Made by a program: the position numbers and the translations under genes. A DNA stretch of 64,000 nt from Myxococcota bacterium (GTDB lineage: Bacteria > Myxococcota_A > UBA9160 > UBA4427): the NCBI GenBank assembly GCA_965250285.1, contig OZ252299.1:5607966-5671965 (forward strand), given 5' to 3'. The notes below the pieces were generated by a model. The model was not told the DNA's origin. It did no database searches and saw nothing but the letters and a program-made list of their open reading frames with translations. Positions 1 to 25,495 of this stretch are shown in pieces. The stretch's first letter is position 1, and each line of letters starts with the position of its first letter.

Positions 1-189
1 CGGGTCGACGACGACGAGCTGAGTGTCGATGGCGCGCGGCGCGGTGATCCATGGGCCGGGGCCGCCCACGAGAAAGGGCACCTCGGCCGAGAAGAACAGC
101 GCGTGCGCGAAGACGCCGATGAGCACCGCGCCGCTCGCGAGCAGCGCGATTCGAAGCCATCGGCCGAGCGCGGCTGCGTCGGAGCTCAC
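1..189 (-). CDS. membrane protein, N-terminal fragment (continues past left edge)
   Basis: My own reverse-strand translation from GTG 189-187 reads VSSDAAALGRWLRIALLASGAVLIGVFAHALFFSAEVPFLVGGPGPWITAPRAIDTQLVVVDP. It is open to base 1, has G/C-rich third positions and a hydrophobic helix. The GTG overlaps the TGA of the upstream GT2 gene (GTGA). It is absent from the ORF track because it is truncated. Confidence 0.4.
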   Translation of the reverse strand, partial: MSSDAAALGRWLRIALLASGAVLIGVFAHALFFSAEVPFLVGGPGPWITAPRAIDTQLVVVDP

Positions 190-968: not shown

Positions 969-1221
969 GACGCGGGCGAGTCTACCATTCCGCGCTGCGC
1001 TCCGGACGTGCGCGTCATGTGGGATACCCTCCCGATCGTGCGAGGTCGGCTCGACGCGCCGCCCCGACCCGGCTGGGCTCGATCCGCCACGCCCCCTCAA
1101 AAAAGGAAAACGAAGAGGAGCGCGATTGACCGGCATCGCCGAAGGCCCCTCGGAAGGGATCGAGTCGAATGGGGGCGAATCCCGAGCTGCCGGCGCGCTG
1201 CCGACCAGCTGCGTCGTCGCG

Positions 1222-4292: not shown

Positions 4293-4329
4293 GCGAGCTC
4301 GAAGCGCGGTGGTCGGCACCTGCTCGGGG

Positions 4330-5328: not shown

Positions 5329-5372
5329 GAACGCTCGCCCCCCGCCCGGGCGATCGGTGAACCCACGCGCGC

Positions 5373-6191
5373 TCAGTCCTCTTTCCGGATGCGGTGGGGG
5401 TTGCGCGTCGTGAGGAAGGGAAAGAGTCGACCGAGCAAATTCAGCACGAAGGCGTCGACCTTCATGAAGGCGCGCAGCATCGGGCGTTCGGGGCGCCCTG
5501 CGAAGCTCGTGACGTGGCTGTAGTCGACGCCCCCCGGTGGCCGCGCCGTGAAGTAGTAGTTCGAGACGCAGAGCCGGGGCGCGTCGCCGGTGATCTCGGC
5601 GACGCCGTGCCAGCTCGTGGCATGCGTCTCCATGATCGCGAGACGGTTGAAGCGAGCGGGGAGGAGCGTCGCTTCGCGCACCCCTTCGTCCCAGAGCTCG
5701 AGCTCGCCGCCGTCTCTTTCGCCGAGATCGGGCGACGCGTAGTAGAGCACGTTGATCGCGCGATAGAGTCGGTTGTCGCCGTCGTGCGAGTTGTCGAGGT
5801 GCGGGTTCAGAAAGTCGCCGCGCAGCATGACCGAGAGCCCCGAGGCGTAGAGCGTCGGATCGGCTTCGAGCCCCTCGAGATCGGTGATCGCTTCGACGGC
5901 GCGCCGAACCGACTCGGCCTGGAACGCGTACGTCACGTCGTTGACGATCGGCTGGTAGGCCGCGACGTCGACGCCCACGCGCTTGCGCTCACGCCAGGTG
6001 TTGCGCAGCCGGAGCGTACTTGCGTCGGGAAAGGCCGCGGCGACGGCGCGGGCCGTATCCTCGGGGATCAGATCGTCGATCGTCACGCAGCGAAACGGGG
6101 TCGAGGCGGCCCAGGCTTCGCGCAGCCGGTCGCGATCGGCGACGAGGCGCGCGGCGATGTGTTCGGCGAGTTCGCTCCGCGACCAGCTCAC
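5373..6191 (-). CDS. 2OG-Fe(II) oxygenase, prolyl-hydroxylase-like
   Basis: HLDNSHD ... SWHGV gives an HxD...H iron triad. The N-terminus FRCVTIDDLIPEDTARAVAAAFPD resembles Tpa1/OGFOD-type hydroxylases (from memory). Confidence 0.65.
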   Translation of the reverse strand: MSWSRSELAEHIAARLVADRDRLREAWAASTPFRCVTIDDLIPEDTARAVAAAFPDASTLRLRNTWRERKRVGVDVAAYQPIVNDVTYAFQAESVRRAVEAITDLEGLEADPTLYASGLSVMLRGDFLNPHLDNSHDGDNRLYRAINVLYYASPDLGERDGGELELWDEGVREATLLPARFNRLAIMETHATSWHGVAEITGDAPRLCVSNYYFTARPPGGVDYSHVTSFAGRPERPMLRAFMKVDAFVLNLLGRLFPFLTTRNPHRIRKED

Positions 6192-6255
6192 ATGAGCCTC
6201 CGCTCGTGTCGGCGCACGGGTCGGCGCGATGTCGGCGTGCGCATCGGCTTCGGGG

Positions 6256-7380
6256 TCAACGCAGCAGCAGATCCTGGGCCAGGCTCTTCATGCCGTACCC
6301 ATAGTGAGTGTAGTGGCCGCGCACGGCTTCGCGCAGGATCGGACCGAGTCGGGCGATGAAGCCCGCCGGCAGCGCGTCGCGCACGCGTGAGTGCTCGACC
6401 TTGGCTTCGATGTGGCGGCGCAGCGCGGGGTCGACCTCGAACTCGGGGTGGGCGTCGAGGCGTCGACCGGCCTCGCCGAAGAGCTGGGCGGCGTGGTCGA
6501 AGGCGCGTTCGCTGATCTGCCCCCTCGCCTTCTCGATCTGCGCGCGCAGATCGAGCAGCGCGAGGCCGAACTGGTTGTCGGCGTGCAGGCGGTACTCGAC
6601 GAGGTCTTCGTCGAGGATGTCGAAGCCCGAGACCGCGGCCACCATGAACGCGACCCATGCGTCGTGCACGCTGCGCAGACGCGGGAAGGGCAGGACGAGC
6701 GGCAGATAGCGACCGCGAAAGGCGAACGTGTTGCCCGCGGCGACGACGTGGCGCATGAAGACGCGTGCGGCCTCGCCGCGATGCACCATGCGCTGCTCGC
6801 CCGCGTGAAAGCCCTGGGCGCGCCAGAGGTCGTAGCCGAGGGGTCGGCGGTCGTCGTCGACGACGCCGCCGTTGCAGAAGAGACCTCCCGTCTCGGGATG
6901 CGCGTCGAAGTGCGCGACCATGCGCTCGATCTTCGTCGGCCTCCAGACGTCGTCCTGGTCGGCGAAGAACACGATGTCGCGGTCGCAGCGGCCGATGGCG
7001 CGCTCGAAGTTGACGGTGGTTCGCGCGCGCTCCGTATTGCGCACGAGCTGCACTTCGAAGGGGGCATCGGCGGCGAAGCGCTCGACGCGCTCGCAGGTGT
7101 CGTCGCCCGAGACGTCGTCGCTCACGATGAGCTGGTCGGGCGGGCGCGTCTGTCTCGCCAGGCTCTCGAGCTGCTCGTCGATGAAGCGTGCGCCCTCGAA
7201 CGTCGCCATCGCCACCGAGACGGACGTTCGGTCGGCGGGCGATTCGGGACGTGCGTCTCGCGCTTCGGCTGCGATCGTCCTGTCTCCGTGACGTCGACGA
7301 CGAGGCGTCGCATCGGGTTCGCTCGCGCGCCGCTCCCAGGCGTTCGCCGCGCAGTGCGTGCCACCGCGCCGGGCGAGCAT
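6256..7380 (-). CDS. glycosyltransferase family 2 (rhamnosyl/hexosyl-transferase type)
   Basis: VSVAMATFEGARFIDEQLESLARQT, LIVSDDVSGDDT, FFADQDDVW (DxD). The start is uncertain: ATG at 7380, 7416 or 7479. The N-terminal ~50 aa are low-complexity. Confidence 0.7.
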   Translation of the reverse strand: MLARRGGTHCAANAWERRASEPDATPRRRRHGDRTIAAEARDARPESPADRTSVSVAMATFEGARFIDEQLESLARQTRPPDQLIVSDDVSGDDTCERVERFAADAPFEVQLVRNTERARTTVNFERAIGRCDRDIVFFADQDDVWRPTKIERMVAHFDAHPETGGLFCNGGVVDDDRRPLGYDLWRAQGFHAGEQRMVHRGEAARVFMRHVVAAGNTFAFRGRYLPLVLPFPRLRSVHDAWVAFMVAAVSGFDILDEDLVEYRLHADNQFGLALLDLRAQIEKARGQISERAFDHAAQLFGEAGRRLDAHPEFEVDPALRRHIEAKVEHSRVRDALPAGFIARLGPILREAVRGHYTHYGYGMKSLAQDLLLR

Positions 7381-7450
7381 AGAAGAAGCGCGAACGTGCG
7401 AGCCATGCTTCGACATGGCCCGCCGCGCTGCCGCTCGGTACCCTGCCGCC

Positions 7451-8926
7451 ATGCCCGGCCCCACTGCGCGACGCCGCATTCAGCGAATTGCGCGCGAGCT
7501 GCGCATTCGGGCCCGCGAGGCCGCGACGCTCTGCGCGCTGGCTTGCGTCGTCGTCGCCTGCGGCGAGGCCCCCGAAGCGACTCGGGCCCGCGATCCACGC
7601 CCCAACATCCTGATGATCTCGCTCGATACGACCCGGGCCGACCACCTCTCGGCCTACGGCTACGAGCGCGAGACCAGCCCGCGGCTCGCGGCCCTCGCGG
7701 CCGAGGGCGTGCGCTTCGACGCCGCATATGCGCCGTCGGCGACGACCGGGCCGACGCATGCGAGTCTGTTCACAGGCCTGGCCCCGATGGCCCACGACGT
7801 GCGCAAGAACGGCCAGCGACTCGCATCGACGCTGCCCACCCTCGCGGGCGTGCTCTCGGCGGCCGGATTCGAGACCGCCGGTGTGATCAGCTCGTTCGTC
7901 CTCTCCGAGCGCTTCGGTTTCGCGAGCGGCTTCGACGTGTGGAACGAAGACTTCTCGCAGGCGACGGCGCCCGAAGGGGTGACCGTCTGGGAAGGGCTCG
8001 AGGTCGAGGGGAAGTTCTACGGCAGCGCCGAAGACACGACGCGGCGCGCGCTGGCGTGGCTCGACGCGCGCGTCCATCCCGAGCGCCCTTTCTTTCTGCT
8101 GGTGCACTACTTCGACCCGCACGACCCGTACACGCCGCCCCCCGGCTACCGTCCGCCCTTCGATCCCGGGCCCAAGGCGGCGCTGAAGCAGGTTCGCACC
8201 GTCTTTCTCTACGATCTGCTGCTGGCGTACACCGACGAGCAGATGGGGCGACTGCTCGATGGCCTCGCCGAGCGCGGCCTCGATGCCGACACGCTCGTCG
8301 TCGTGGTGGGCGACCACGGTGAAGGGCTGATGGACCACGGGCACCCGTTTCACGGCGCGCAGATCTACGAAGAAGCGGTGCGGATCCCGTTCGTCGCGCG
8401 CTGGCCGGGCCGCATCGAGCCGGGCGGCGAGATCGCCGAGCCCGTTGCGCTGGTCGATCTGCCCTCGGTGCTGCTCGAGGCTGCCGGCGCGTCGAGCCGC
8501 GCGCTCACGGGGGCATCGCGCGGTCCGCTCGGCGAGCTCCTGACCCGGACCGACCCCGGCGACGAAGCAGGCGAGACCCCGGTCTTTCTCTACCGCCGCC
8601 ACTACGAGCCGGCCGATCTGACCGACACGGTCTCGGTCGCGGGCGAGCAGCTCGGCGTGCGCCTCGGTCGTTGGAAGCTGATTCGCGCGCCCGAGGAGGG
8701 TCGCCTCGAGCTGTACGACCTCGCGGTCGATCCGGGCGAGTCGAAGAACGTGGCCGACGAACATCCCGAACGTGTCGCCGCCCTGGGCGCGCTGCTGGAC
8801 GACTGGAGCGCCGATGCGGACCGCGTGCGCGAGACGTGGCGGCGCGCTTCGGGGGACGCGCGCGGTGAGCACGATCTCGACCCCGAAGAGCGCGCGCGGC
8901 TGGAGGCGCTCGGCTATGTCGAGTAG
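7451..8926 (+). CDS. sulfatase-fold lipoprotein, Thr at nucleophile position
   Basis: Within ORF 7358..8926; ATG 7451 (alternative 7415). Lipobox VVVAC. Motifs ISLDTTRADH and VGDHGEGLMDHG. SATTGPTHASLFTG stands in place of CxPxR. The protein ends in LEALGYVE. Confidence 0.8.
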   Translation: MPGPTARRRIQRIARELRIRAREAATLCALACVVVACGEAPEATRARDPRPNILMISLDTTRADHLSAYGYERETSPRLAALAAEGVRFDAAYAPSATTGPTHASLFTGLAPMAHDVRKNGQRLASTLPTLAGVLSAAGFETAGVISSFVLSERFGFASGFDVWNEDFSQATAPEGVTVWEGLEVEGKFYGSAEDTTRRALAWLDARVHPERPFFLLVHYFDPHDPYTPPPGYRPPFDPGPKAALKQVRTVFLYDLLLAYTDEQMGRLLDGLAERGLDADTLVVVVGDHGEGLMDHGHPFHGAQIYEEAVRIPFVARWPGRIEPGGEIAEPVALVDLPSVLLEAAGASSRALTGASRGPLGELLTRTDPGDEAGETPVFLYRRHYEPADLTDTVSVAGEQLGVRLGRWKLIRAPEEGRLELYDLAVDPGESKNVADEHPERVAALGALLDDWSADADRVRETWRRASGDARGEHDLDPEERARLEALGYVE

Positions 8927-8981
8927 AGCGGGGTCGAGTAACCGAGGGGCGAGTAGCGGAGGGTCGATCCGCGCGGGTTCG

Positions 8982-10508
8982 ATGAGAACCAGGTCGCGGC
9001 AAGCGCCGTCGCAGCGCGCCGTGCCCAGTCGCGGCCCGACCTCGCGGCGGACGTCCACAGCGTGGACCGTCGCGGCGCTCGTTCTGCTCATCGTCGTGGC
9101 CTTCGGTTGTTCGAGCGAGTCGACCCGGCCCGACGTGCTGCTCGTGACCATCGACACGCTGCGCCCCGACTTCCTCGAACCCTATGGCTTCGAGCAGCCG
9201 TCGTCGCCGGTGATCGCCGGCCTCGCCGAAGAGGGCGTCGTGTTCGACAACGCGATCGCGGCGGGGTCGCTCACCGCGCCGGCGCACGGCTCGATCATGA
9301 CGGGCCGCTTCGCACGGCAGCACTCGATCGGCGCGCTGAACGGCGAGACCCGCCTCGAAGGCGCGCCGACGCTGGCCGAGCAGTTCGCCGGTGCGGGCTA
9401 CGACACCGCCGCCTTCATCTCGAACGTGGTGCTGCGTCGCCGGCTCGGTCTCGATCGCGGCTTTGGCGTGTACGACGACGACCTGCCAGAGCAGGAGCTC
9501 AATCGGCCGTTGTACTTCGAGCGCACGGCCGACGAGACGGCGGCCCGCGCGCTCGAATGGCTCGCGTCGCGCGGCGACGAGCCGGTCTTCCTCTGGCTGC
9601 ATCTCCAGGATCCGCACGGGCCGTACACGCCCCCCGAAGAGACGCGCGGGCGCTTCGAAGACGTACCATTGCGCGTGAAGCAGCGCCTGCAGGTGCTCGA
9701 CAAGAACAGCGGACGCGCCGGTATTCCGGCCTACCAGGCGCTGCCCGGTGTCGATCGCCCGGGCGAGTACGCTGCGCGCTATGCCGAAGAGGTGCTCTTC
9801 GCCGATCGCTGGCTCGGCGAGGTGCTCGAGGCGGTGCGGGCGCGCCGCCCCGGCGTGCCGCCGATCGTCGTGCTCACGGCCGACCACGGCGAGAGCATGG
9901 GCGAGCAGGGCTGGTTCTTTCAGCATGGACAGGCCTCGACACCCGATCTCGCGCGCGTGCCCCTCCTGGCCGTCGTGCCCGGCGTCGAGCCGCGTCGCGA
10001 CGCGTCGTTCGTCAGCCATGCCGATCTCGCGCCGACGATCCTCGAACTCGCGGGTCTGTCTGCGCTCGAAGGGGCCACCGGAGACTCTCTGGCCGACCTG
10101 ATCCGTTCGGGGGACACGTTGGGTGAGCGTGTGATCTTCTGCGACACCGACGGCGAGTCGGCCGCCTACTTCGAGGGCGGCATCGTGCGGGCGCAGGGCG
10201 GCGCCGCCCACGCCGTGCCAGGCTCGGCAAGCGGCCCAACCCGGTTCACGGGCCTGCGCGAGAAGGAGCCAGGCGTCTGGCGCCCGATGCCCGTCGAAGA
10301 GACCGCCCGCGAGGCGCTCACGACCTACCTCGGCGCGGCGGTGCCCCTCGTGCCCGCAGGCGCCATGGAGCCCGAGCACATCGAGCACTTGCGCGCGCTC
10401 GGCTATCTCGACCCTGCGCTCGACCCCGATCTCGACCCCGACTCGGACGAGGGGCAGGCCGAGGCGGAAGCCGACGAGACGCACGATGGCGGGGCGGAGG
10501 CGCGCTGA
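8982..10508 (+). CDS. sulfatase-fold lipoprotein, Thr at nucleophile position
   Basis: Within ORF 8772..10508; ATG 8982 (alternative 8916). Lipobox VAFGC. Motifs VTIDTLRPD and TADHGESMGEQG. GSLTAPAHGSIMTG stands in place of CxPxR. LRALGYLD is followed by an acidic tail. Confidence 0.8.
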   Translation: MRTRSRQAPSQRAVPSRGPTSRRTSTAWTVAALVLLIVVAFGCSSESTRPDVLLVTIDTLRPDFLEPYGFEQPSSPVIAGLAEEGVVFDNAIAAGSLTAPAHGSIMTGRFARQHSIGALNGETRLEGAPTLAEQFAGAGYDTAAFISNVVLRRRLGLDRGFGVYDDDLPEQELNRPLYFERTADETAARALEWLASRGDEPVFLWLHLQDPHGPYTPPEETRGRFEDVPLRVKQRLQVLDKNSGRAGIPAYQALPGVDRPGEYAARYAEEVLFADRWLGEVLEAVRARRPGVPPIVVLTADHGESMGEQGWFFQHGQASTPDLARVPLLAVVPGVEPRRDASFVSHADLAPTILELAGLSALEGATGDSLADLIRSGDTLGERVIFCDTDGESAAYFEGGIVRAQGGAAHAVPGSASGPTRFTGLREKEPGVWRPMPVEETAREALTTYLGAAVPLVPAGAMEPEHIEHLRALGYLDPALDPDLDPDSDEGQAEAEADETHDGGAEAR

Positions 10509-10510
10509 CG

Positions 10511-11233
10511 ATGTATCGCGGCCTCAAGGTGATCGCGATCGCGCCCGTGCTCGACGAAGAGGTGAAGATTCGGGAGGTGGTGCGGCGGGTGCCCCGGGAC
10601 GTCGTCGACGAGGTGCTGGTGGTCGACGATGGCTCGACCGATCGCTCGGCCGACGTCGCCCGCGAGCAGGGCGCGCGGGTCGTCTCGATGGGCTACGTCG
10701 CCGGCGTGGGCGCTGCGCTTCGCCGAGGGTACGCCGAGGCTGTGGCGGGCGGCTTCGACGTGGCCGTGGTCATGGCCGGCAACAACAAGGACTCGCCCGA
10801 AGAGATCCCGCTGCTGCTCGACCCGATCGCCGACGGCCGCGCCGATTTCGTGCAGGGCTCGCGCTTTCTCAAGCCCGATGCGCAGTTCGGTGAGATGCCG
10901 ATCTACCGCCGCCTTGCGACGCGCATCCACCCGATCCTGTTCTCGATCGTGTCGGGTCGAAGGGTGACCGAGTCGACCAACGGCTTTCGCGCGATCCATA
11001 CGCGCGTGTTGCAGGACGAACGCCTCGATCTCGATCAGCCGTGGCTCGATGAGTACGAGCTCGAGCCCTACCTCTATTACAGGGTCATTCGAATGGGTTT
11101 CGCCACGGCGGAAGTGCCCGTGACGAAGATCTACCCGCCGAAGGCGCTCGGGCAGACGAAGATGAAGCCCGTCACGGGTTGGTGGTCGATGCTTCGGCCG
11201 CTCGTGTACCTTGGGCTCCGCATCAAGCACTAG
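10511..11233 (+). CDS. glycosyltransferase family 2, polyprenol-phosphate glycosyltransferase-like (ArnC/DPM1 type)
   Basis: VIAIAPVLDEEVKI, VVDDGSTDRS, and a short amphipathic C-terminus. It starts 3 nt after the preceding stop. Confidence 0.8.
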   Translation: MYRGLKVIAIAPVLDEEVKIREVVRRVPRDVVDEVLVVDDGSTDRSADVAREQGARVVSMGYVAGVGAALRRGYAEAVAGGFDVAVVMAGNNKDSPEEIPLLLDPIADGRADFVQGSRFLKPDAQFGEMPIYRRLATRIHPILFSIVSGRRVTESTNGFRAIHTRVLQDERLDLDQPWLDEYELEPYLYYRVIRMGFATAEVPVTKIYPPKALGQTKMKPVTGWWSMLRPLVYLGLRIKH

Positions 11234-11242
11234 GATGTCGGC

Positions 11243-12283
11243 ATGAGCGCAGATCCGCTGGTCCGCGTCGCCGTGGTCGGAGCCGGCCACTGGGGCCCGA
11301 ACCTCATCAACAATTTCGAGAGCAGTCTGCGCAGCCGGGTCGCGTGGGTGGTGGACCGGGACGCGCAGCGGCTCGAGCGCGTGCGCGAACGCTTTCCCGA
11401 CATGCGCACCACAGACGACGTGCGTCACGCGATCGACGATCCCGACGTCGATGCGGTGGTCATCGCCACGCCCACGAGCACGCACCTCGAGCTCGCGAAG
11501 GCCGCGCTCGAAGCGGGCAAGCACGTGCTGGTCGAGAAGCCGCTGGCCGATTCGGTGGCCGGCTGCGAAACGCTCTGCGAGCTGGCCGAGCGCGAGCAGC
11601 GCGTCTTGATGGTCGGGCACATCTTCGTCTACAACGACGCGGCCCGGAAGGTGAAGTCGATCATCGAGGCCGGGGACCTCGGCCGCATCTACTACATCGC
11701 GATGAACCGAACGAACCTCGGCCCGATTCGCGTCGACGTGAACGCGGCCTGGGATCTCGCGGCCCACGACATTGCGCTCGCGAGCGACTGGCTCGGCAGC
11801 TGGCCGCAGTCGGTGTCGGCCACCGGCGGTGCGTGGATCAACGAGGGCGTGGCCGACGCCGTCTTCGCGACCCTGCGCTACCCGGGCGACGTGCTGGTCA
11901 ACCTCCATGCGAGCTGGCTGAACCCGCGCAAAGCGCGCGACATCACCGTCGTCGGCGATACGCGCATGCTCACCTTCGACGACATCGACCTGCGCGAGCC
12001 GGTTCGCATCTACGACAAGCAGGTCTCGAACGAGCGCACGGGCGCGTCGTTCGTCGATACGTTCTCTTCGTTCCGCATGAGCGTGCTCGATGGGGACGTC
12101 AGCGTGCCGCGCTTCCCGATGGGTGAGCCGCTCAAGAACGAGTGCGAGCACTTTCTCGACTGCGTGATCGACGGCAAGGCAGCGCGCTCGGGGGGGCCGG
12201 AGGGGCTGGCGGTGGTGCGCGTGCTCGAGGCGCTGTCGCGCAGTCTCGAGCAGGGTGGCACCAGCGAGGCGACGGGGTTGTAG
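11243..12283 (+). CDS. Gfo/Idh/MocA family NAD-dependent sugar (NDP-sugar) dehydrogenase
   Basis: N-terminal Rossmann motif VAVVGAGHWGPNLINNF. EKPLA motif (VLVEKPLADS). Resembles WbpB-type 3-dehydrogenases. Confidence 0.85.
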   Translation: MSADPLVRVAVVGAGHWGPNLINNFESSLRSRVAWVVDRDAQRLERVRERFPDMRTTDDVRHAIDDPDVDAVVIATPTSTHLELAKAALEAGKHVLVEKPLADSVAGCETLCELAEREQRVLMVGHIFVYNDAARKVKSIIEAGDLGRIYYIAMNRTNLGPIRVDVNAAWDLAAHDIALASDWLGSWPQSVSATGGAWINEGVADAVFATLRYPGDVLVNLHASWLNPRKARDITVVGDTRMLTFDDIDLREPVRIYDKQVSNERTGASFVDTFSSFRMSVLDGDVSVPRFPMGEPLKNECEHFLDCVIDGKAARSGGPEGLAVVRVLEALSRSLEQGGTSEATGL

Positions 12284-13384
12284 ATGCCGATCCCCCTCGT
12301 CGATCTGCAGATCATGCACCGTGAGATCGAGGCCGAGGTGAACGCCGCCTTCGACCGCATCATGTCGAGTGGTGCGTTCGTGCTCGGCCCTGACGTCGCC
12401 GAGTTCGAGTCGGCGTTCGCGCGCTACTGCGAAGTCGATCACTGCATCGGGGTGGCGAACGGGACCGATGCACTCGAGCTCGCGATGCGTGCGCTCGACA
12501 TCGGCCCTGGCGACGAGGTCGTGCTGCCGGCCAACACGTTCATCGCGACGGCCCTCGCGGTCGCGCGCGTGGGTGCGACGCCAGTGCTCGTCGACGCGCG
12601 GGACGGCGATCTGCTGATCGATCCCGAGGCCGTCGAGGCCGCGGTCGGCGCATCGACGCGCGCGATCGTCGGGGTCGACCTCTTTGGCCAGGTGGCGCCG
12701 TTCGAGGCCCTCGTCCCCGTCGCGGAGCGCCACGGGCTCGCCCTGCTCGAAGACGCGGCCCAGAGCCAGGGCGCGCGTCGCGACGGGCGACGAGCCGGGT
12801 CGTTCGGCGACATCGCCGGCACGAGCTTCTACCCTGGCAAGAACCTCGGTGCCTACGGCGACGGGGGTGCAGTGACGACGGCGCGTGTCGACCTGGCCGA
12901 TCGGATCCGCCGCCTGCGCAACTACGGCAGCGAGATCAAGTACCACCACCCCGAGACCGGCTTCAACTCGCGCCTCGACACGCTCCAGGCAGCCGTGCTC
13001 AACGCAAAGCTCGCGCGCCTCGATGGCTGGAACGCACAGCGACGCGCGGCCGCCGAGCACTACGACGCCCTGCTTGCCGACACGGCAGAGGTGCGTCTGC
13101 CCGTCACGGATCGGCGCAACGAACCCGTCTGGCACATCTATCAGGTGCGCGTCCCCAGACGCGACGACGTGCTCGAGAAACTGCATGCGGCCGGGATCGG
13201 TGCGGGCATCCACTACCCCGTGCCGATTCATCTGCAGGGCGCGTTCGCGTCGCTCGGGCAGGGCGAAGGTCGGTATCCGGTCTCGGAGGCGGCCGCCGGC
13301 GAGATGATCTCGCTGCCGCTCTTTCCGGGCATCACCGAGGCCCAGCAGGCCGAGGTGGTGGACGCGCTACGCGGCGCGCTGTGA
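12284..13384 (+). CDS. DegT/DnrJ/EryC1/StrS family PLP-dependent sugar aminotransferase
   Basis: GVANGTDALELAMRAL, SFYPGKNLGAYGDGG (PLP lysine), YHHPETGFNSRLDTLQAAVL. The ATG directly abuts the preceding TAG. Confidence 0.9.
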   Translation: MPIPLVDLQIMHREIEAEVNAAFDRIMSSGAFVLGPDVAEFESAFARYCEVDHCIGVANGTDALELAMRALDIGPGDEVVLPANTFIATALAVARVGATPVLVDARDGDLLIDPEAVEAAVGASTRAIVGVDLFGQVAPFEALVPVAERHGLALLEDAAQSQGARRDGRRAGSFGDIAGTSFYPGKNLGAYGDGGAVTTARVDLADRIRRLRNYGSEIKYHHPETGFNSRLDTLQAAVLNAKLARLDGWNAQRRAAAEHYDALLADTAEVRLPVTDRRNEPVWHIYQVRVPRRDDVLEKLHAAGIGAGIHYPVPIHLQGAFASLGQGEGRYPVSEAAAGEMISLPLFPGITEAQQAEVVDALRGAL

Positions 13385-15663
13385 GCGACGCCCCTGCGCC
13401 CGAGCCGGCGCCCCGCGAGCGGCGGTGGCTCTGGTGGGGCCCCGTGCTCGGCGCCGCCACGCTCGTCGTACTCATTCGAAGCCTCGGCTTCGAGTACGTG
13501 TTCGTCGACGGCGAGGTCGTGTTTCCGCCCGCTGATCCTCAGTATCACTTGCGTCGTGGACTGCAGGTCTTCGAGCGGTTCCCGGACGTCTTGCTCTTCG
13601 ATCCCTACATCAACTACCCGGGCGGGGCACCGATCCCCTGGCCCCCGCTCTACGACATCGTGATGGGCGCCGTGCCGCGCTTCGCCGGCGCCGACGAGCA
13701 TGGCTTCGAGGTCTTCGCCGCGTGGCTGAGCCCGCTGTGTGCGCTGCTCGCGTGTGTGCCGATCGCGGGCATCGCAAGGCGGACGTCGGGCGAGCAGGGG
13801 CCGCGCGTGCCGGCGCTCGCCATCACGATCTTCGCGCTGGTCCCGCTGCTCGTGAGCTACGGCCGGGTCGGCATGGCCGACCATCACGCCGCCGTCTCGA
13901 TGATCGGGGCGTGGCTGCTGCTCTGTTGCGTGGCGCAGGTCGACCCCGGCCTGGGTGAGCGATCGGCCCGCCGCTGGATGTGGGCCCACGTCGCGGCGCG
14001 CCTTGCGCTGCTGCTGACCTGGCACGGCAGCCTGCTCTACCTGGGCATCGCCGAGGGGAGCCTGGCGCTGGCGTTCATCTCGACGGGCCGCCGCGGTCTC
14101 GCGCTTCATCAGGCGATCGGCGCGGCGGTGACGGCCTTGGTCCTCGTGCCCGTGCTCGCGGTGATGCCGACGCCGCTCGGCGGCCCGTATTCGGCGATCG
14201 CGCTCTCGCGTCTCCACGTGATCGCGATGCTCGGCGTCGCGATGGTTCTCGGGGCCGGGTTGCTCGCGACGCGGCAGTCGGCGCTCGATGCGCCCATCGC
14301 TCGACTCGGCGCGCTCGCGCTGGCATCGCTGGTGTTCATCGCGGGCGTGCTCGCGTTGCCCGGGCCGCGCGAGGGGCTCGGCCCGGCGCTCGAGTTTCTC
14401 ACCATGACCGATGGCGTCGGGGACGTGACGGGCGAGCAGCTGCCGATCTTCGATCTCGGAGCGCGCCGGGCCATCAAGCCGTTTCCGTTGGTGTGGAGCT
14501 GGTGGGCGCCGCTGATTCCGCTCGTGCCGATCGGCGTCGCGCTGGTCGCGCGTCGCCAGCCGCCGGGCAGCGCGGGTCGCGCCGCGGCGTGGATGCTCTG
14601 CCTCTGGACCGCGATCTTCGGCGCGCTCGCGATCACCCAGCGCCGCTACGGCAACGACTTCGGCCCGGCGGCGGCCGTCGGCCTGGCCCTGGGGTTCGTC
14701 TGGTTGGCGGATGCGCTCGCCGCGCGCCTCGTCGCATCGCCCCGGCGTTCGGCGGTCGCGACGAGCCTGGCGCTGCTGTTCGTCCTCCTGACGGCATGGC
14801 CGGCGCTGGCGCGCGTCCATGGCCCGCGCGCCGTGTCGAGCTGGCGCGCGCTGCGCGGTGACGAGGCGATCCGCGTTCAGGCGCGCACGGGCATTGGCGC
14901 AACGCTGTCGCGATTCCTGCGGCAGGTGCGACACCGGACGCCCGAGACGGCGGGCTACTTCGACGACGCGGGTGAGCCCGAGTACGGCGTCATTGCGCAT
15001 CCGAATCTCGGCCACGCGATTCAGTACGAAGCGCGCCGGCCGACGGCGACCGACCCCTTCTGGGCCTACATCGGGCGCGAGAACTGGGCGCTGACCCAGG
15101 GCTTCGTCGAAGCGACCGACGAGGCCGAGGCCCGCGTGCTCGCCGATCGGCTCGACGGTCGCTACGTGATCACGATGCCGCAGCTGCCGCCGGGCTCGGT
15201 GATGCAGCGACTGCACGACGGCTATGGCACGGCGACGCGCGACGCGCCGGGGCTCGGGCACTTCCGCTTCGTCGCCGAGGCGCCGAGCGGCGCGCCGGCG
15301 CTCGGCGAAGTGTTCCAACCCGGTGCCGCGCGCCGGGGCTCGCCCTACAAGCTCTTCGAGATCGTGGCCGGCGCCGACCTCGTGTTCGCATGCCCGGCGG
15401 GCACGCGCGCCCGGGTGCAGGCCCGCATCGAGCACGGTCGCGGCACGTTCGTGTGGCGGACCCACGCGTTGGCCGACGAGACGGGTCGGGTGAGGGTGCG
15501 CATCCCCTATGCAACGGCGAACGGCGAGGCGGCGGGCGGTGGCGTGGCCGATGGACCGCTGCGCGTCGAGTGCGGCGATCGAGCCTGGCCCGTGCGGATC
15601 CCGGCCGGCGCTGTTCGCGAAGGCCGCGAGGTGACGGCCCCCGCGCCGCCGCCCGTCGGCTGA
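13381..15663 (+). CDS. STT3/AglB-like oligosaccharyltransferase-family membrane protein with a degenerate WWDYG box
   Basis: GTG 13381 overlaps the upstream stop (GTGA). First loop ADPQYHLRRG resembles STT3 FDPWFNYR. NYPGGAPIPWPPLYD and GMADHHA are present. There are ~13 hydrophobic segments. YGVIAHPNLGHAIQY aligns by eye with YGV..WWDYGH.I.Y. GRYVITMP, FRFVAEAP and YKLFEIV match the STT3 C-terminal domain pattern (family signatures recalled from memory). Confidence 0.5.
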   Translation: MSDAPAPEPAPRERRWLWWGPVLGAATLVVLIRSLGFEYVFVDGEVVFPPADPQYHLRRGLQVFERFPDVLLFDPYINYPGGAPIPWPPLYDIVMGAVPRFAGADEHGFEVFAAWLSPLCALLACVPIAGIARRTSGEQGPRVPALAITIFALVPLLVSYGRVGMADHHAAVSMIGAWLLLCCVAQVDPGLGERSARRWMWAHVAARLALLLTWHGSLLYLGIAEGSLALAFISTGRRGLALHQAIGAAVTALVLVPVLAVMPTPLGGPYSAIALSRLHVIAMLGVAMVLGAGLLATRQSALDAPIARLGALALASLVFIAGVLALPGPREGLGPALEFLTMTDGVGDVTGEQLPIFDLGARRAIKPFPLVWSWWAPLIPLVPIGVALVARRQPPGSAGRAAAWMLCLWTAIFGALAITQRRYGNDFGPAAAVGLALGFVWLADALAARLVASPRRSAVATSLALLFVLLTAWPALARVHGPRAVSSWRALRGDEAIRVQARTGIGATLSRFLRQVRHRTPETAGYFDDAGEPEYGVIAHPNLGHAIQYEARRPTATDPFWAYIGRENWALTQGFVEATDEAEARVLADRLDGRYVITMPQLPPGSVMQRLHDGYGTATRDAPGLGHFRFVAEAPSGAPALGEVFQPGAARRGSPYKLFEIVAGADLVFACPAGTRARVQARIEHGRGTFVWRTHALADETGRVRVRIPYATANGEAAGGGVADGPLRVECGDRAWPVRIPAGAVREGREVTAPAPPPVG

Positions 15664-15705: not shown

Positions 15706-17364
15706 TCATTCGACGCGGAAGCGGCCGTCGAAGATCAGCAGATGGGGGCGCGGGACGCGCACGGTGTAGAACGCGGGGGCGCCTTCGCCGTCGCGGTGCA
15801 CGTCGATCTCGAGCCCCTGCGCGCGCGCGACTTCGAGCAGACGCGGGCCGAGGCCGAAGAGGTCGGTCGCCTCGTCGTGAACGAGGTATCGCGTCCCTGC
15901 ATCGCCGCGATGGGCCCAGGGGCGACCGCTGCGAAGCGTGGCCGGGATCTCCCAGATGGCTTCGCGCACGTCGGCCGAGCGCGTGAGAAAGAGCAGAGGC
16001 TCGTGGAAGCCCCAGTCGAGACTCACGGCCTGACCGCCGTCGCGCTCGAGCACCGTGGCGAACTCGGTGAGCGCGTGGGTCCAGCGGCCGCGGCCGCCGG
16101 TCTGCTCGATCAGTGCGCGGGTATCGGCGATGCGACCGACCTGTCCGGCGGCGACGAATCCGATCGCCACACTCAGCACCGCCCGGGCGAGCACCGCCCG
16201 CCGTCGATCCCGCCACGGCCGGACGTAGAGGTCGTAGACAGCGACGCCGATGACGGCGTGCCAGAGCGGGAAGACGTTCAGCTGGTGATGCGCGCGCACG
16301 GCACCGGGCAGCGCGACCATCCCGGCGGTGACCAGCGCGGTGGTCGCGAGGAGCCACGCGCGCAGCGCGACGTCGCGGCGCGCGCCTGCGTCGCCGCGAC
16401 GTCGCAGGGTCTCGATGATGAGCAGCACGAAGCAGCCGAGCGCCGCCCCGAGCAGGGGCGTCGCCTCGGCGGGCGCTTCCAGCGTGCGCTCGAAGACACC
16501 GCCGGCCTCCATCAGCCGGTGAAAGCGCGTGCCGTCGAGGGTCTGCGTGAACAGCCAGAAGCGCTCGCTCGAGTCACCGCGATCGGCGATGGCCTCGCTG
16601 GTCGAGAACAAGGCGCCGAGGTTCGACCACATCGGCGCCGATGCGACGAGCAGCAGCGCGGCGCCCGCGAAGAGCGCCGGCCGGCGCGTACGAAGCGCCT
16701 CGCTGACCAGATCGCGGCGGAAGGCCAGCAGCGCAAGCCCGGCCGCGGCCAGCACCACGGCGAAGTCGGCGCGGCTGTAGATGCCGAGCCCGAACGCGAG
16801 CCCAGACAGGCCTGCCCACGCGATGCCCATCGCGCCGCGCGCGCGCCACGCGGCGAGCAACGCGCAGGCGCCGGCCGAGCGACACAGGAGGTTCGTCGTG
16901 AACGGTCCCCACTCGAACTGCGCCAGAAAGAAGAAGCTCGGGTCGCTCAGGGCGAGCAGGCCCGTCACGATCGCAGCCGGTGCGCCGAAGAGGGCGGCGA
17001 TCCACAGCATCGCGAGGCCGAGCGCGACGAGGGCGGTGGCGCACGTCGTCACGCGCAGCACACGGGGGGTGGCGCCGAAGACCGCAAACGCCGGGATCGC
17101 GAGCTGGCTCTTGAGCGAGCCGAGGTAGGCGGCGTTGTACGTGGGGAACGGTCGGCCGAACACCTCGACCGAGCGCACACTGCCGGGGTGGGTCGAGGGT
17201 CGCCCGACGTCGACGAAATCGCGGGCCTGCTGGGCCATGAAGGCCTCGTCGTAGTAGAGGCCAAGCCGGTCGGCGTCGTTCCAGGCGAAGCCGAGTACGA
17301 TGCTCGAGCCCAGCGCCCACGTGAGGGCGACGACCAGCAGGGGACGACCCAGGACCGTCGTCAA
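15706..17364 (-). CDS. polytopic membrane protein, GT-C-type glycosyltransferase candidate (GT39/ArnT-like)
   Basis: Within ORF 15706..17499. TTG 17364 overlaps the TGA of the upstream methyltransferase gene (TTGA); alternative ATG 17499. TM1 is followed by the loop NDADRLGLYYDEAFMAQQARDF (YxDE motif). Many TM segments and a C-terminal soluble domain. Confidence 0.55.
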   Translation of the reverse strand: MTTVLGRPLLVVALTWALGSSIVLGFAWNDADRLGLYYDEAFMAQQARDFVDVGRPSTHPGSVRSVEVFGRPFPTYNAAYLGSLKSQLAIPAFAVFGATPRVLRVTTCATALVALGLAMLWIAALFGAPAAIVTGLLALSDPSFFFLAQFEWGPFTTNLLCRSAGACALLAAWRARGAMGIAWAGLSGLAFGLGIYSRADFAVVLAAAGLALLAFRRDLVSEALRTRRPALFAGAALLLVASAPMWSNLGALFSTSEAIADRGDSSERFWLFTQTLDGTRFHRLMEAGGVFERTLEAPAEATPLLGAALGCFVLLIIETLRRRGDAGARRDVALRAWLLATTALVTAGMVALPGAVRAHHQLNVFPLWHAVIGVAVYDLYVRPWRDRRRAVLARAVLSVAIGFVAAGQVGRIADTRALIEQTGGRGRWTHALTEFATVLERDGGQAVSLDWGFHEPLLFLTRSADVREAIWEIPATLRSGRPWAHRGDAGTRYLVHDEATDLFGLGPRLLEVARAQGLEIDVHRDGEGAPAFYTVRVPRPHLLIFDGRFRVE

Positions 17365-17969
17365 ACCGGATCCGTTCGCAGCCGCGCGACGAAGTGAAGC
17401 CCGCGATCGAAGAACAGGCTCGCCGGAAACGGATAGAGCCCGAGGCGCGACTTCCACGTCTCGACCTCGAGCCCCACGTCGGCGAGCACGGCGCGCCACT
17501 CGCGCTCGCTCCAGTAGAGATGGGGCACGGCGACGCCGTGGCGAGCGTTGCCGACCCGGTCCATGAAACGCAGCGTCGCCTCGGCGAAGGGGCCATCGCG
17601 CGTGTGATCCTTCAGCAGGACCCAGCTGCGTGCGACACGCTTCGCGTCGTTCAAGAGCCTGCGGGCCTGCTCGGTGTGGTGGAGCACGTCGACGAAGAGC
17701 ACGACGTCGACCGCATCGTCTTCGGCGGGCAGATGCGCGCCATCGAAACGCTCGACCGGAATCGCCGTGTCATCGCGGACGAGGACGTCGACGCCGCGAA
17801 CCGAGATGTCGGGGCGCACCTGCTCGATCGCGCGCGCCAGTCGGCCGTCGCCGCTGCCCACGTCGAGCACGCTCGCGGCTTCGGGCAGCAGGGGCGCGAG
17901 GTGATCGACGAGGATGCGCACGCGCCGGTCGACGACGGTGTGGCGATGCATGTGCTCGACGGCGTTCAT
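17361..17969 (-). CDS. class I SAM-dependent methyltransferase
   Basis: VLDVGSGDGRLARAI (motif I) and VDVVLFVDVLHHTEQ (motif II/III region). Confidence 0.8.
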   Translation of the reverse strand: MNAVEHMHRHTVVDRRVRILVDHLAPLLPEAASVLDVGSGDGRLARAIEQVRPDISVRGVDVLVRDDTAIPVERFDGAHLPAEDDAVDVVLFVDVLHHTEQARRLLNDAKRVARSWVLLKDHTRDGPFAEATLRFMDRVGNARHGVAVPHLYWSEREWRAVLADVGLEVETWKSRLGLYPFPASLFFDRGLHFVARLRTDPV

Positions 17970-18003: not shown

Positions 18004-19173
18004 TCACCGGCGATGCATCCCCAGAATCGACACGAAGAAGCCCGAGAGGATCGTCTGGAAACCCAGCGCGGCGAGCGTGACGCCGGGGATCACCCAGCGC
18101 AGCGTCGCCGGGTAGTCGAGCGCCCCGAAATCGTGCGCGAACCAGGTCGAAGCGGTCTGGCCGATCATCGCGAGCCCGGCGACGAACGCAGCGGCGCCGA
18201 TCAACAGGCCGCGCTCGAGCGTGGCCCAGCCGTAGAAGCGCTCGAGCCGCGCGTCGGGTGGCATCAGCCCGACGGTCGTGGCGAACGTCTTGCTGAAGAT
18301 GGCGAAGAGGATCGACTGATAGCCGAGCAGCAGCGACAGGCTTGCGACGAGCAGCGTGTGGACGCCGATCTGCGCGGGCCCGATGCGAATGCCGGGCAGC
18401 GCCAGCACGTAGCCCAGCAGGCCGGCGATCACGAGCAACGCGCCGGGCGCGAGGAAGAGCCAGCGCGGGCTGTACATGAGGAAGAAGCGGACCGTGCGCC
18501 ATCCGTCTCGGAACGTGCGCAGGTGCGGGCCGTGTGACTCGCGTCCGTCGGGATGCAGCGTGATCGGCACCTCGTCGATGCGGGCCCCGAGCAGCGTCGA
18601 CTTGATGATCATCTCGGTGGCGAACTCCATACCCGCGCAGCGCTGCTCGAGCCGGTCGTAGAGCTTCTTCGTGAAGCCGCGCATGCCGCAGTACACGTCG
18701 TGGATCGGCGTGCGAAACATGAAGCGAACCATGCGCGTGAGCATCGGGTTGCCGAGCCATCTGTGGAGCGGAGGCATGGCGCCCGGCAGCACGCGTCCGC
18801 CGCCCCAGGGCAGGCGGCAGCCCTGTACGAGATCGGCCCCCGCGCGCAGCTTCTCGACGAACTTCGGGATCTCGAGAAAGTCGTAGCTGTCGTCGGCGTC
18901 GCCCATCAGCACGAAGCGGCCGCGAGCCTCGGCGATGCCGCCCATGAGCGCGCTGCCGTAGCCGCGCTCGCTCACGTGCACGACGCGCGCGCCCAGCTCT
19001 TCGGCGATGGAGACCGATGCATCGGTCGAGCCGTTGTCGGCCACGATGATCTCGCCCACGATCTCGTGCTCGGTGAAGGCGGTCTGCGCCTTGCGAATGC
19101 AGGTCGCGAGCGTGTCCGCTTCGTTGAGGCACGGCATCACGACGCTGAGCTCGATGGAATCTCCGGCTTCCAT
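18004..19173 (-). CDS. glycosyltransferase family 2 with C-terminal TM domain (polyprenol-phosphate glycosyltransferase type)
   Basis: LSVVMPCLNEADTL, VADNGSTDAS, MGDADDSYD (DxD). Four C-terminal hydrophobic helices. Confidence 0.8.
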   Translation of the reverse strand: MEAGDSIELSVVMPCLNEADTLATCIRKAQTAFTEHEIVGEIIVADNGSTDASVSIAEELGARVVHVSERGYGSALMGGIAEARGRFVLMGDADDSYDFLEIPKFVEKLRAGADLVQGCRLPWGGGRVLPGAMPPLHRWLGNPMLTRMVRFMFRTPIHDVYCGMRGFTKKLYDRLEQRCAGMEFATEMIIKSTLLGARIDEVPITLHPDGRESHGPHLRTFRDGWRTVRFFLMYSPRWLFLAPGALLVIAGLLGYVLALPGIRIGPAQIGVHTLLVASLSLLLGYQSILFAIFSKTFATTVGLMPPDARLERFYGWATLERGLLIGAAAFVAGLAMIGQTASTWFAHDFGALDYPATLRWVIPGVTLAALGFQTILSGFFVSILGMHRR

Positions 19174-20414: not shown

Positions 20415-20431
20415 TCGACGAGGACGCTCTC

Positions 20432-25479: not shown

Positions 25480-25495
25480 GATGGCCGGACCGTTC

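Follow-up and report, generated by a model that had tools for sequence, protein, structure and literature searches.

Oligosaccharyltransferases (OSTs) of the STT3, AglB and PglB type are treated as synonymous with Asn-X-Ser/Thr glycosylation, and the WWDYG motif is their textbook signature. The locus described here raises the question of what such an enzyme does once that signature has been replaced. It lies in 64,000 nucleotides of DNA from a Myxococcota bacterium (assembly GCA_965250285.1, contig OZ252299.1, positions 5,607,966 to 5,671,965 of the forward strand; G+C ~70%), a stretch that we call the window and number from its first letter. A run of five genes at positions 8982 to 15663 ends in the gene for a 760-aa AglB/STT3-family GT-C protein, named STT3L below, in which HPNLG stands in place of WWDYG. 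We are nearly certain that STT3L belongs to the AglB lineage, that its catalytic centre is intact and that its Ser/Thr-binding pocket has been lost. Activity of enzymes of this kind would mean that GT66 chemistry now serves a new class of acceptor.

The five-gene operon

The operon consists of the following genes, with coordinates in the window.

8982-10508, + strand: sulfatase-fold lipoprotein, second of a tandem pair (Pfam Sulfatase E=9e-41; signal peptide; syntenic in orthologous loci)
10511-11233, + strand: soluble GT2, 240 aa, of the AglJ/DPM1/PpgS-like polyprenyl-phosphate sugar synthase type (Glycos_transf_2 E=1e-11)
11243-12283, + strand: Gfo/Idh/MocA oxidoreductase, probable nucleoside-diphosphate (NDP)-sugar 3-dehydrogenase (Pfam GFO_IDH_MocA E=1e-29)
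12284-13384, + strand: DegT-family aminotransferase of the sugar C3-aminotransferase type (Pfam DegT E=5e-113)
13381-15663, + strand: STT3L, 760 aa, with ~13 transmembrane (TM) helices and a periplasmic domain that includes an AglB_L1-type peripheral domain

Successive genes are separated by gaps of 2, 9 and 0 nt, and the last junction, read directly in the sequence, is a GTGA start/stop overlap at 13381-13384 through which DegT is translationally coupled to STT3L. An original prediction, made from the letters of the DNA, had described this packing and assigned a domain to each gene. The packing matches the table of open reading frames (ORFs) as well as our direct reading, Pfam matches the sulfatase, GT2, Gfo/Idh/MocA and DegT calls, and the peptides that had been quoted from the GT-C protein (ADPQYHLRR, NYPGG...PWPPLY, GMADHH, GRYVIT, FRFVAEAP, YKLFEIV and YGVIAHPNLGHAIQY) are all present in the translation. 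The first gene starts at an ATG inside a longer ORF (8772-10508); position 8982 was chosen because the preceding sulfatase gene ends at 8926, and the signal peptide of the product ends in a lipobox-like VAFGC. No convincing terminator or sigma-70 promoter was found within the five-gene run.

STT3L is a homologue of euryarchaeal AglB

Profile searches and fold comparison both place STT3L with the 'long' AglB of Euryarchaeota. In Pfam, AglB_L1 matches above its cutoff (29.2 against 23.6 bits), STT3 and AglB_core-like fall just below theirs (22.6 against 24.5 and 24.8 against 27), and there is no PMT or PMT_2 match. The single NCBIfam match is TIGR04154, 'oligosaccharyl transferase, archaeosortase A system-associated', which covers residues 23-598 with E=5.6e-58 and 197 bits, below the cutoff of 450 bits. 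A database search with STT3L returned 150 homologues, and the named ones are called 'STT3 domain-containing protein [Myxococcota bacterium]' or similar, which is where the public annotation of the homologues ends; PF02516 matches are precomputed for many of them. When a family profile was built from 69 of these 150 homologues, it matched AglB-L of A. fulgidus (AfAglB-L; 3WAJ/5GMY) with E=7e-55 along its TM region, central core and C-terminal peripheral domain, compared with E=2e-6 for human STT3A and E=2e-3 for C. lari PglB.

The same order of relatedness is seen in the fold. An AlphaFold2 model of STT3L, built from the family alignment, has a pLDDT of 94.6 and a pTM of 0.93, and in a Foldseek search of the PDB four AfAglB-L structures rank on top with a query TM-score (TMq) of 0.70-0.76 (7e9s_A: E=7e-29, TMq 0.76). 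Lower matches are STT3 subunits (TMq ~0.57), the C-mannosyltransferase DPY19 (0.53), PglB (0.46) and ArnT (5f15/5ezm; 0.37-0.39, E ~1e-6); the E-values for PglB and STT3 lie between 1e-13 and 1e-9. STT3L is a homologue of the euryarchaeal long AglB. From its motifs the original prediction had called it STT3-like rather than ArnT-like, and an ArnT/GT83-like identity is ruled out by the hidden Markov model (HMM) results and the fold comparison.

Active site and sequon pocket

Residues were mapped through the alignment of the family profile to AfAglB-L, with residue roles taken from PMC8342417, and residue statistics come from a MAFFT alignment of AfAglB-L with 232 full-length family members whose overall identity goes down to ~30%. 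The positions that matter are these.

13534-13536, + strand: Asp52, equivalent to AfAglB Asp47 of the first DXD motif, which binds the metal and activates the acceptor (D in 231/232 members)
13879-13887, + strand: Asp167-His168-His169, equivalent to AfAglB Asp161-His162-His163, second DXD motif and metal site (232/232, 229/232 and 228/232)
14434-14436, + strand: Glu352 in external loop 5 (EL5), equivalent to AfAglB Glu360 of TIXE (E in 232/232)
14644-14646, + strand: Arg422, equivalent to AfAglB Arg426 next to the donor phosphate (R in 232/232)
14998-15012, + strand: His540-Pro-Asn-Leu-Gly544 in place of WWDYG (AfAglB-L W550-W-D-Y-G554)
Thr598: equivalent to AfAglB D611 at the start of the 'DKi' motif, by HMM alignment; no conserved Lys follows
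Pro86: equivalent to AfAglB His81, the phosphate-site His, by profile alignment

In AglB the first DXD acid works with the Glu of TIXE to activate the acceptor amide, EL5 pairs with the acceptor peptide, and WWDYG and DK/MI jointly make the pocket that binds Ser/Thr (PMC8342417). The equivalents of the catalytic residues D47, D161-H-H163, E360 and R426 are 98-100% conserved in the 232 members. Within EL5 the flank E-Q-x-P-L-F is conserved in STT3L, and AfAglB shares E-x-x-P-[LF]-F.

The sequon-reading elements present a different picture. Pairwise phmmer, the family profile and the 233-sequence MAFFT alignment all set HPNLG against WWDYG 550-554 of AfAglB-L, in agreement with the positional equivalence claimed in the original prediction. 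The residues shared with AglB flank the motif, with Y-G-V-I-[SA] before it, H directly after it and (D/N)-P-F further on; within the region itself only Gly544 and the subsequent His545 are common to both, and their equivalents in the MAFFT alignment (Gly554 and His555) are kept in 230/232 and 216/232 members. No WWD string occurs elsewhere in STT3L or in the six frames of the 64-kb window. A canonical motif at another place is ruled out for the family too: among 257 members it is found only in the basal relatives P0257 and P0258. At the DK position, neither the HMM nor the MAFFT alignment shows a conserved Asp or Lys; the Thr598 column holds Thr in 65 of the 69 profile sequences, and D611 falls in a variable column of the MAFFT alignment, so that the exact DK register is uncertain.

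Judged by these residues, the chemistry-bearing half of the STT3L active site appears to be present and the sequon-reading half absent. With the catalytic residues kept and both WWD and DK lost, selection of Asn-X-Ser/Thr in the known way is therefore impossible, and a changed acceptor rule, which the original prediction had put forward, is the natural inference. Because WWDYG and DK/MI are both missing and the scores stay below the TIGR04154 and Pfam STT3 cutoffs, STT3L is best filed as a divergent bacterial subfamily of the AglB lineage and not as an N-oligosaccharyltransferase.

Evolution of the family

STT3L is one member of a large and structured clade in which the catalytic core is strictly conserved and the sequon pocket is swapped for a new motif, with intermediates that lead back to a WWD-bearing relative. 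When 1.84 billion representatives were searched exhaustively with the profile, 5557 proteins matched with E<=1e-3 and 1837 with E<=1e-30, and at least 150 clusters at 50% identity match the STT3L family profile with E<1e-129. The motif x[AP]N[LIF]GH is present in ~105 of the first 120 homologues and WWD in none of them (0/120); in the 69-sequence set Asn542 is found in 52/69, Gly544 in 69/69 and His545 in 65/69. Across the 232 members the three WWD columns hold H/P/D and others, then P/A/W, then N/S/G and others, and only P0257 and the related P0258 still have WWDLGH.

A neighbour-joining tree rooted on AfAglB-L, which is rough, orders these forms from the root as P0257, then a clade with xW[GT]xGH that keeps the second Trp only, then a diverse grade with xP[SN]xGH and finally a crown group in which H[AP]N[LIF]GH is fixed and to which the window protein belongs. 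Since the new motif is constrained while the catalytic centre is kept untouched, the alignments argue for a probable change of specificity and not for decay. P0257 is encoded in locus L049 (GCA_029260795.1, JAJDCO010000108.1, positions 10001-12238), where a sulfatase-fold gene comes directly after it and a PMT_2 gene also lies downstream. With its WWDLGH, it is the natural comparator for the timing of sequon-pocket loss. We also note that some genomes carry two or three STT3L paralogues (L002/L025/L037, L013/L021, L027, L028) and that in L027 and L028 two copies stand back to back.

The clade is confined to uncultured Myxococcota and is probably mostly marine, which we presume from isolate names such as TMED72/TMED88. 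It has been reported that a few bacterial homologues nest in the euryarchaeal clade and that at least two transfers from archaea to bacteria took place (PMC4973528). Given this report, and because the similarity to AfAglB-L far exceeds that to PglB, STT3L was probably transferred from Archaea separately from the event that gave rise to PglB. This would document a second, independent archaea-to-bacteria transfer of an OST, here with what looks like Agl-like polyprenyl-monophosphate pathway logic. Full-text literature on bacterial AglB/STT3 homologues without WWD, on myxococcotal OSTs and on PEP-CTERM glycosylation yielded no description of the STT3L clade, of such WWD-less homologues or of their link to PEP-CTERM islands.

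The amino-sugar cassette and the proposed lipid-linked donor

The original prediction had called the operon Arn-like, and the general logic of amino-sugar synthesis, loading on polyprenyl phosphate and transfer by a GT-C enzyme stands; the enzymes that carry it out are not those of the Arn pathway. The DegT protein scores highest in the PDB against the C3 aminotransferases DesV (2oga, 370 bits), QdtB (341) and WbpE (279), compared with 164-173 bits for ArnB, and ArnB-type C4 transamination is ruled out because the C3 enzymes score about twice as high. The oxidoreductase is of the Gfo type and not ArnA; its best NCBIfam match is the archaeal UDP-GlcNAc 3-dehydrogenase (160 bits, below cutoff), and its PDB matches include 7bvj (E=1e-19), which we take to be GnnA. 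The ORFs scanned in the window include nothing that is ArnA- or ArnD-like. The GT2, which had been described as ArnC/DPM1-like, fits the DPM1 side of that label and only weakly the ArnC side: its NCBIfam scores are 87 bits for AglJ, 69 for the haloarchaeal Dol-P hexose transferase, 66 for mycobacterial PpgS and 27 for ArnC, and its best PDB match is P. furiosus DPMS (5mlz). It is the most conserved protein of the operon, with 75-92% identity in loci where STT3L reaches only 41-70%.

From these matches the cassette appears to be Wbp/Gnn-like, with predicted C3 oxidation, C3 transamination and optional N-acetylation of a UDP-linked N-acetylhexosamine (HexNAc). A hexapeptide acetyltransferase gene lies between DegT and STT3L in L002 (9311-9886), L004, L011, L012, L015 and L032, and in four more loci the space between the two genes is of matching size; the window, L001, L003, L016, L034 and L048 have no such gene at this position. 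The presence of the acetyltransferase in orthologous loci means that the sugar is therefore not necessarily cationic, and lineages may differ in whether the transferred sugar is 3-acetamido or 3-amino.

The ORFs scanned across the window gave no match to phosphoglycosyl-transferase families, and euryarchaeal AglBs use dolichol-monophosphate donors (PMC8342417; PMC11407970). Based on these two points we infer that the donor in the clade of the window is a polyprenyl-monophosphate-linked 3-amino or 3-acetamido HexNAc, possibly extended by soluble GT2s. Whether the adjacent cassette is what makes this donor we regard as an even bet.

A conserved island with PEP-CTERM proteins

Synteny was compared in 48 loci from GTDB representative genomes, nearly all labelled as Myxococcota or 'Deltaproteobacteria' metagenome bins; a few loci carry 'Spirochaetaceae' as the label of the bin. 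In the orthologous clade the gene order is GT2, 661-aa membrane protein, GT2, sulfatase, sulfatase, GT2, Gfo, DegT, (acetyltransferase), STT3L, PMT_2 GT-C on the opposite strand, methyltransferase, GT2-with-TM, GalE, a membrane protein that we call orf511, (MFS/spermidine-synthase fusion), TPR, TPR. A more distant clade has the order TPR, TPR, STT3L, (GDSL), MFS/spermidine-synthase, orf511. When neighbours were clustered, the families that most often co-occurred with STT3L were TPR proteins (23 loci), GT2s (21), orf511 (21), sulfatase-fold proteins (19) and PMT_2 proteins (18). The island is ~42 kb long and reaches to ~42.6 kb in the window, and its TPR and PEP-CTERM genes are listed here together with one further PEP-CTERM-like gene.

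25496-28018, - strand: TPR lipoprotein (Pfam TPR families; best NCBIfam match PrsT at 122 bits, below cutoff; lipobox-like N-terminus)
28027-30618, - strand: TPR protein, PrsT-like (TIGR02917 PrsT 223 bits, E=5e-66, below the 312-bit cutoff; synteny)
31508-32473, + strand: PEP-CTERM protein, paralogue 1, divergent from the TPR genes (C-terminal FAPEPGTLLLLASGAAGLVLIGRRRINK; identical to P0271)
32768-33736, + strand: PEP-CTERM protein, paralogue 2 (21.4 bits to Pfam PEP-CTERM and 20.6 bits to TIGR02595, each above its cutoff, for the ORF 32714-33736)
62823-63617, + strand: third PEP-CTERM-like protein, unrelated to the other two (19.9 bits in Pfam, slightly short of the cutoff)

Neither TPR protein reaches the PrsT equivalog score (223 and 122 against 312 bits). 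The tandem PEP-CTERM paralogues are ~320 aa long and rich in Gly, Thr and Ala, and the local G+C is 0.65 compared with ~0.70.

The island holds a dedicated family of PEP-CTERM proteins. In the window, as well as in L018 (where there are two), L030, L042 and L044, PEP-CTERM genes and TPR genes are arranged head-to-head; in L025, L027 and L038 PEP-CTERM genes lie nearby. For the PEP-CTERM protein of the window, public data contain 104 clusters of homologues, most of them on short metagenome contigs. In a reciprocal test, 4/4 of the PEP-CTERM homologues with a visible upstream flank adjoin a TPR-TPR-orf511-GT2-methyltransferase-PMT_2 block, and the genes downstream of the same homologues are sulfatase, Ddl and, further on, GT87 and YfhO, as in the window; one distant homologue departs from the conserved position. 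The link to PEP-CTERM proteins that the original prediction had raised thus gains support from synteny. The PEP-CTERM proteins of the island contain a few N-X-S/T triplets, and the invariant Asn residues of the family lie outside sequons, N200 in TTNVI and N256 in GTNxL, without Ser/Thr at +2. Such residues are compatible with a sequon-independent enzyme but are not evidence for one, as they may be structural.

Proposed function and alternatives

We propose the following pathway. The Gfo-type 3-dehydrogenase and the C3 aminotransferase would convert UDP-HexNAc into its 3-amino derivative, which the hexapeptide acetyltransferase of about half of the relatives would turn into the 3-acetamido form. 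The AglJ/DPM1-like GT2 would load the sugar on polyprenyl monophosphate, perhaps with extension by the soluble GT2s of the island, the lipid-linked sugar would be flipped across the membrane, and in the periplasm the AglB-like enzyme would pass it on to an acceptor selected by a different rule. The leading candidate for this acceptor would be the PEP-CTERM family of the island, which adjoins two PrsT-like TPR proteins. We put the probability of the whole chain at about 45%: STT3L would be active as a glycosyltransferase in the periplasm, would use an amino sugar or short glycan linked to polyprenyl phosphate and would follow an acceptor rule other than N-X-S/T, most likely on a secreted protein. 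STT3L is probably an active transferase with a lipid-phosphate donor. That its acceptor is a protein has, in our estimate, a little less than an even chance, and is favoured because TPR genes co-occur with STT3L in 23 loci, the PEP-CTERM genes hold a conserved position, the E-x-x-P-[LF]-F part of EL5 is kept and TIGR04154 bears an NCBIfam name that ties it to the archaeosortase A system. That the PEP-CTERM protein in particular is the acceptor seems unlikely. It is more doubtful still that the island mirrors, in a bacterium, the AglB/archaeosortase pairing of archaea; STT3L would then, by a sequon-independent rule, either glycosylate the PEP-CTERM protein or build the amino-sugar-bearing glycan to which an exosortase attaches it; the linking sugar of the Wbp pathway on type IX secretion cargo offers a parallel for the latter option (PMC7468200).

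A number of observations weigh against this proposal. The T-I of TIXE is not conserved in the STT3L family, and the phosphate-site His81 of AfAglB has become Pro in 167/232 members of the MAFFT alignment. Many distant STT3L paralogues lie in unrelated neighbourhoods, and the carriers are all uncultured metagenome-assembled genomes (MAGs). The amino-sugar cassette is absent from the orthologous L014 and L017 and from the more distant clades; therefore the donor assignment holds at best for the clade of the window, and the cassette is a variable, clade-specific donor module and not the defining partner of the family. Because PEP-CTERM genes are frequent in the genome (three in 64 kb), proximity is weak evidence and the argument rests on conserved position, and synteny cannot separate a substrate from a co-functioning surface component. 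The ORFs scanned in the 64-kb window include no exosortase. Furthermore, a GT2 and a GT-C gene beside amino-sugar genes are typical of lipid A or polysaccharide modification (ArnC/ArnT, PpgS/Rv3779).

This last point leads to the main rival, an ArnT-like role, in which a single amino sugar would pass from polyprenyl phosphate onto lipid A or the lipopolysaccharide core, an exopolysaccharide or a glycolipid anchor, and the pocket would have been lost with no peptide to bind. The operon layout of NDP-sugar oxidation, transamination, GT2 and GT-C is what such a role would use, the Gfo/DegT pair is the GnnA/GnnB chemistry for lipid A GlcN3N, complete loss of WWD and DK would be expected if no sequon is read, and the window and its relatives carry polysaccharide-type functions (GT87, YfhO-like and MBOAT/AlgX O-acetylation genes). 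We nevertheless consider this role somewhat unlikely, since STT3L keeps the whole AglB-L periplasmic domain with high model confidence and the acceptor-pairing E-x-x-P-L-F half of EL5, resembles AglB (TMq 0.76) and not ArnT (0.37-0.39), and belongs to a family in which the cassette is not universal while TPR and PEP-CTERM proteins recur. The conserved new motif H[AP]NLGH and the linkage to TPR and PEP-CTERM genes are left unexplained if STT3L is a dedicated hydrolase of lipid-linked glycans, whose free periplasmic products would be decorated by the sulfatase-fold lipoproteins by analogy with osmoregulated periplasmic glucans. We hold this to be quite improbable, even though OSTs including AfAglB hydrolyse their donor without peptide (PMC8342417), the catalytic residues are intact with the peptide-reading motifs gone, and sulfatase-fold genes, which carry Thr-x-Pro-x-His, adjoin even the WWD-retaining basal member.

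Ordinary N-glycosylation of Asn-X-Ser/Thr, with HPNLG functionally replacing WWDYG, would fit the AglB fold and catalytic residues, a possible hydrogen bond from Asn542 in place of Asp552, and the few N-X-S/T triplets of the PEP-CTERM proteins. It is very improbable all the same: PglB and Stt3 lose their N-glycosylation activity when WWDYG is mutated, and the Asn residues that are invariant in the PEP-CTERM family lie outside sequons. Moreover, both tryptophans and the DK element are gone, which together are the Ser/Thr site (PMC8342417). We give the least credence of all to a non-catalytic relic or scaffold of a former OST. The lost hallmark motif and the Pfam STT3 and TIGR04154 scores under the curated cutoffs would agree with it, but in 232 members, at identities down to ~30%, all residues of the metal site, the acids and the phosphate site show 98-100% conservation, and the reading frame is unbroken and coupled in translation to the adjacent gene.

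Our proposal, that an AglB-type transferase has taken on a new acceptor rule, bears on the evolution of OST specificity, on glyco-engineering, where sequon-independent OSTs are wanted, and on the fate of PEP-CTERM proteins. If the reading as a counterpart of the AglB/archaeosortase pairing were true, the island would represent a new class of GT66 protein glycosylation and a first biochemical handle on that fate.

Relation to known systems

The closest known relatives are AfAglB-L (3WAJ, 5GMY, 7E9S) and the members of TIGR04154, which share with STT3L ~13 TM helices, the central core and the AglB_L1 peripheral domain in the same order. AfAglB-L and STT3L have in common the first DXD Asp, D-H-H, the Glu-x-x-P-[LF]-F of EL5, the phosphate Arg, the G-H after the WWD site and (D/N)-P-F. 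Both are linked to sortase-type sorting, the archaeal enzymes to PGF-CTERM/archaeosortase by the NCBIfam name and STT3L to PEP-CTERM by synteny. In contrast to AfAglB-L, STT3L has H-[AP]-N for WWD, no conserved DK and Pro for His81, and it has lost the T-I of TIXE; it differs from TIGR04154 members in its score (197 bits against the 450-bit cutoff). Its hosts are bacterial (Myxococcota MAGs), and its carrier is presumably a bacterial polyprenol and not the dolichol of AglB. Campylobacter PglB and eukaryotic STT3 (GT66) share the GT-C fold and the catalytic architecture, but they use pyrophosphate-linked donors and need WWDYG and MI/DK to read the sequon.

At the level of the pathway, the island is closer in its logic to the euryarchaeal dolichol-phosphate Agl pathway than to Arn. 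Like the Agl system of Haloferax volcanii, it combines an AglJ-like GT2, soluble GT2s, a methyltransferase and an AglB-like enzyme with a second pair of GT2-with-TM and PMT_2 protein. Euryarchaeota use Dol-P carriers, and a sugar is added after transfer from its own Dol-P carrier (PMC11407970). Unlike in Agl, no component of the island is over an equivalog cutoff, the OST is without a sequon pocket, and Agl has nothing comparable to the sulfatase-fold lipoproteins, the TPR proteins, the MFS/spermidine-synthase fusion or the PEP-CTERM protein. The Arn (ArnB/C/T) and PpgS/Rv3779 systems resemble the operon in the use of a nucleotide amino sugar, a GT2 that loads it on polyprenyl phosphate and a GT-C that transfers it outside the membrane. 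The operon differs from Arn in that its GT-C is of the AglB family and not GT83, its aminotransferase is of the C3 type and not ArnB, its oxidoreductase is Gfo-type and not ArnA, ArnD and ArnE/F are missing and the GT2 is only weakly ArnC-like (27 bits). The adjoining Gfo-type dehydrogenase and WbpE-like C3 aminotransferase, with an acetyltransferase in six loci, recall WbpB/WbpE/WbpD and GnnA/GnnB, systems for C3 oxidation, transamination and N-acetylation that act on UDP-GlcNAc(A), although all scores are under the equivalog cutoffs and the acetyltransferase is absent from the operon of the window.

Other genes of the island

The remaining genes of the island in the window are the following.

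186-1136, - strand: GT2, upstream syntenic part
835-2820, + strand: multi-TM protein of 661 aa, no family match, upstream syntenic part
2817-4292, + strand: third sulfatase-fold protein, upstream syntenic part
4330-5328, - strand: LPG_synthase_TM flippase-like protein, upstream syntenic part
5373-6191, - strand: 2-oxoglutarate (2OG)-Fe(II) oxygenase, upstream syntenic part
6256-7479, - strand: GT2, upstream syntenic part
7358-8926, + strand: sulfatase-fold protein, first of the tandem pair (Pfam Sulfatase 2.5e-50; synteny)
15706-17499, - strand: GT-C membrane protein of the PMT_2 type, convergent with STT3L (31.9 bits to Pfam PMT_2, above cutoff)
17361-17969, - strand: S-adenosylmethionine (SAM)-dependent methyltransferase (Pfam Methyltransf_23 1e-14; synteny)
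18004-19173, - strand: GT2 with four C-terminal TM helices, AglJ/AglD/GtrB-like (Pfam; NCBIfam AglJ 111 bits; 67-75% identity across loci)
19350-20414, + strand: UDP-glucose 4-epimerase GalE (TIGR01179 405 bits, above cutoff)
20414-22183, + strand: orf511, membrane protein with several TM segments, a loop that carries the motif G-D-F-I-S-D-D-D, and weak TPR similarity at the C-terminus (co-occurs with STT3L in 21 loci)
22285-25527, - strand: MFS/spermidine-synthase-like fusion membrane protein, 1080 aa (NF037959 126 bits, above cutoff)
35627-37723, - strand: D-Ala-D-Ala ligase (Ddl) domains at residues 329-670 of a 698-codon ORF
38917-40557, - strand: GT87 GT-C-type membrane protein, syntenic far end of the island
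40100-42634, + strand: GT-C-type membrane protein with a YfhO C-terminal match, syntenic far end of the island

The upstream part (186-7479) is syntenic in L002-L004, L011, L012, L034 and L036. Its 661-aa protein has at least eight predicted TM segments, has no Pfam or NCBIfam match and is syntenic in orthologous loci, and it could be another membrane glycosyltransferase or a polymerase; its ORF overlaps the GT2 call at 186-1136 on the opposite strand, and its start is probably over-called. On the other side of the operon, the PMT_2 gene lies directly downstream of STT3L in 18 loci and also adjoins the WWD-retaining basal member, and the GT2-with-TM at 18004-19173 is the probable partner of this GT-C protein.

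The island has four sulfatase-fold paralogues, all on the + strand (2817-4292, 7358-8926, 8982-10508 and 33933-35420). At the nucleophile position the two next to the operon genes read T-G-P-T-H (7358-8926) and T-A-P-A-H (8982-10508), compared with C/S-x-P-x-R in true sulfatases. A Thr nucleophile is typical of the phosphoryl-transfer members of this fold, which suggests phosphoryl-transfer or phosphodiesterase chemistry for these two proteins.

No Pfam or PDB match was found for the TM part of orf511; from its motif and architecture the protein may be a GT-C protein of the TMTC/PMT type. Its conserved N-terminus (TM1 and G-D-F-I-S-D-D-D-H-Y-V) is encoded in the same frame ahead of 20648, the first canonical start, and there is no ATG, GTG or TTG between the GalE stop TAA (20412-20414) and that position. 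The start is either a rare codon (ATC at 20414 or CTG at 20432) or mis-sequenced; homologues in other loci have normal starts. The protein at 22285-25527 fuses an MFS-like domain of 14-15 TM helices to a spermidine-synthase-like domain and co-occurs with STT3L even in the distant TPR-TPR-STT3L clade; a literature search on such fusions found nothing.

At the far end, the GT87 and YfhO ORF calls overlap by ~450 nt, so at least one of their starts is over-called. Likewise, the Ddl homologues of related islands are ~365 aa long, and the long N-terminal extension in the window is probably due to an over-called start. Between Ddl and GT87, the relatives L051 and L053 carry MBOAT and AlgX O-acetylation genes.

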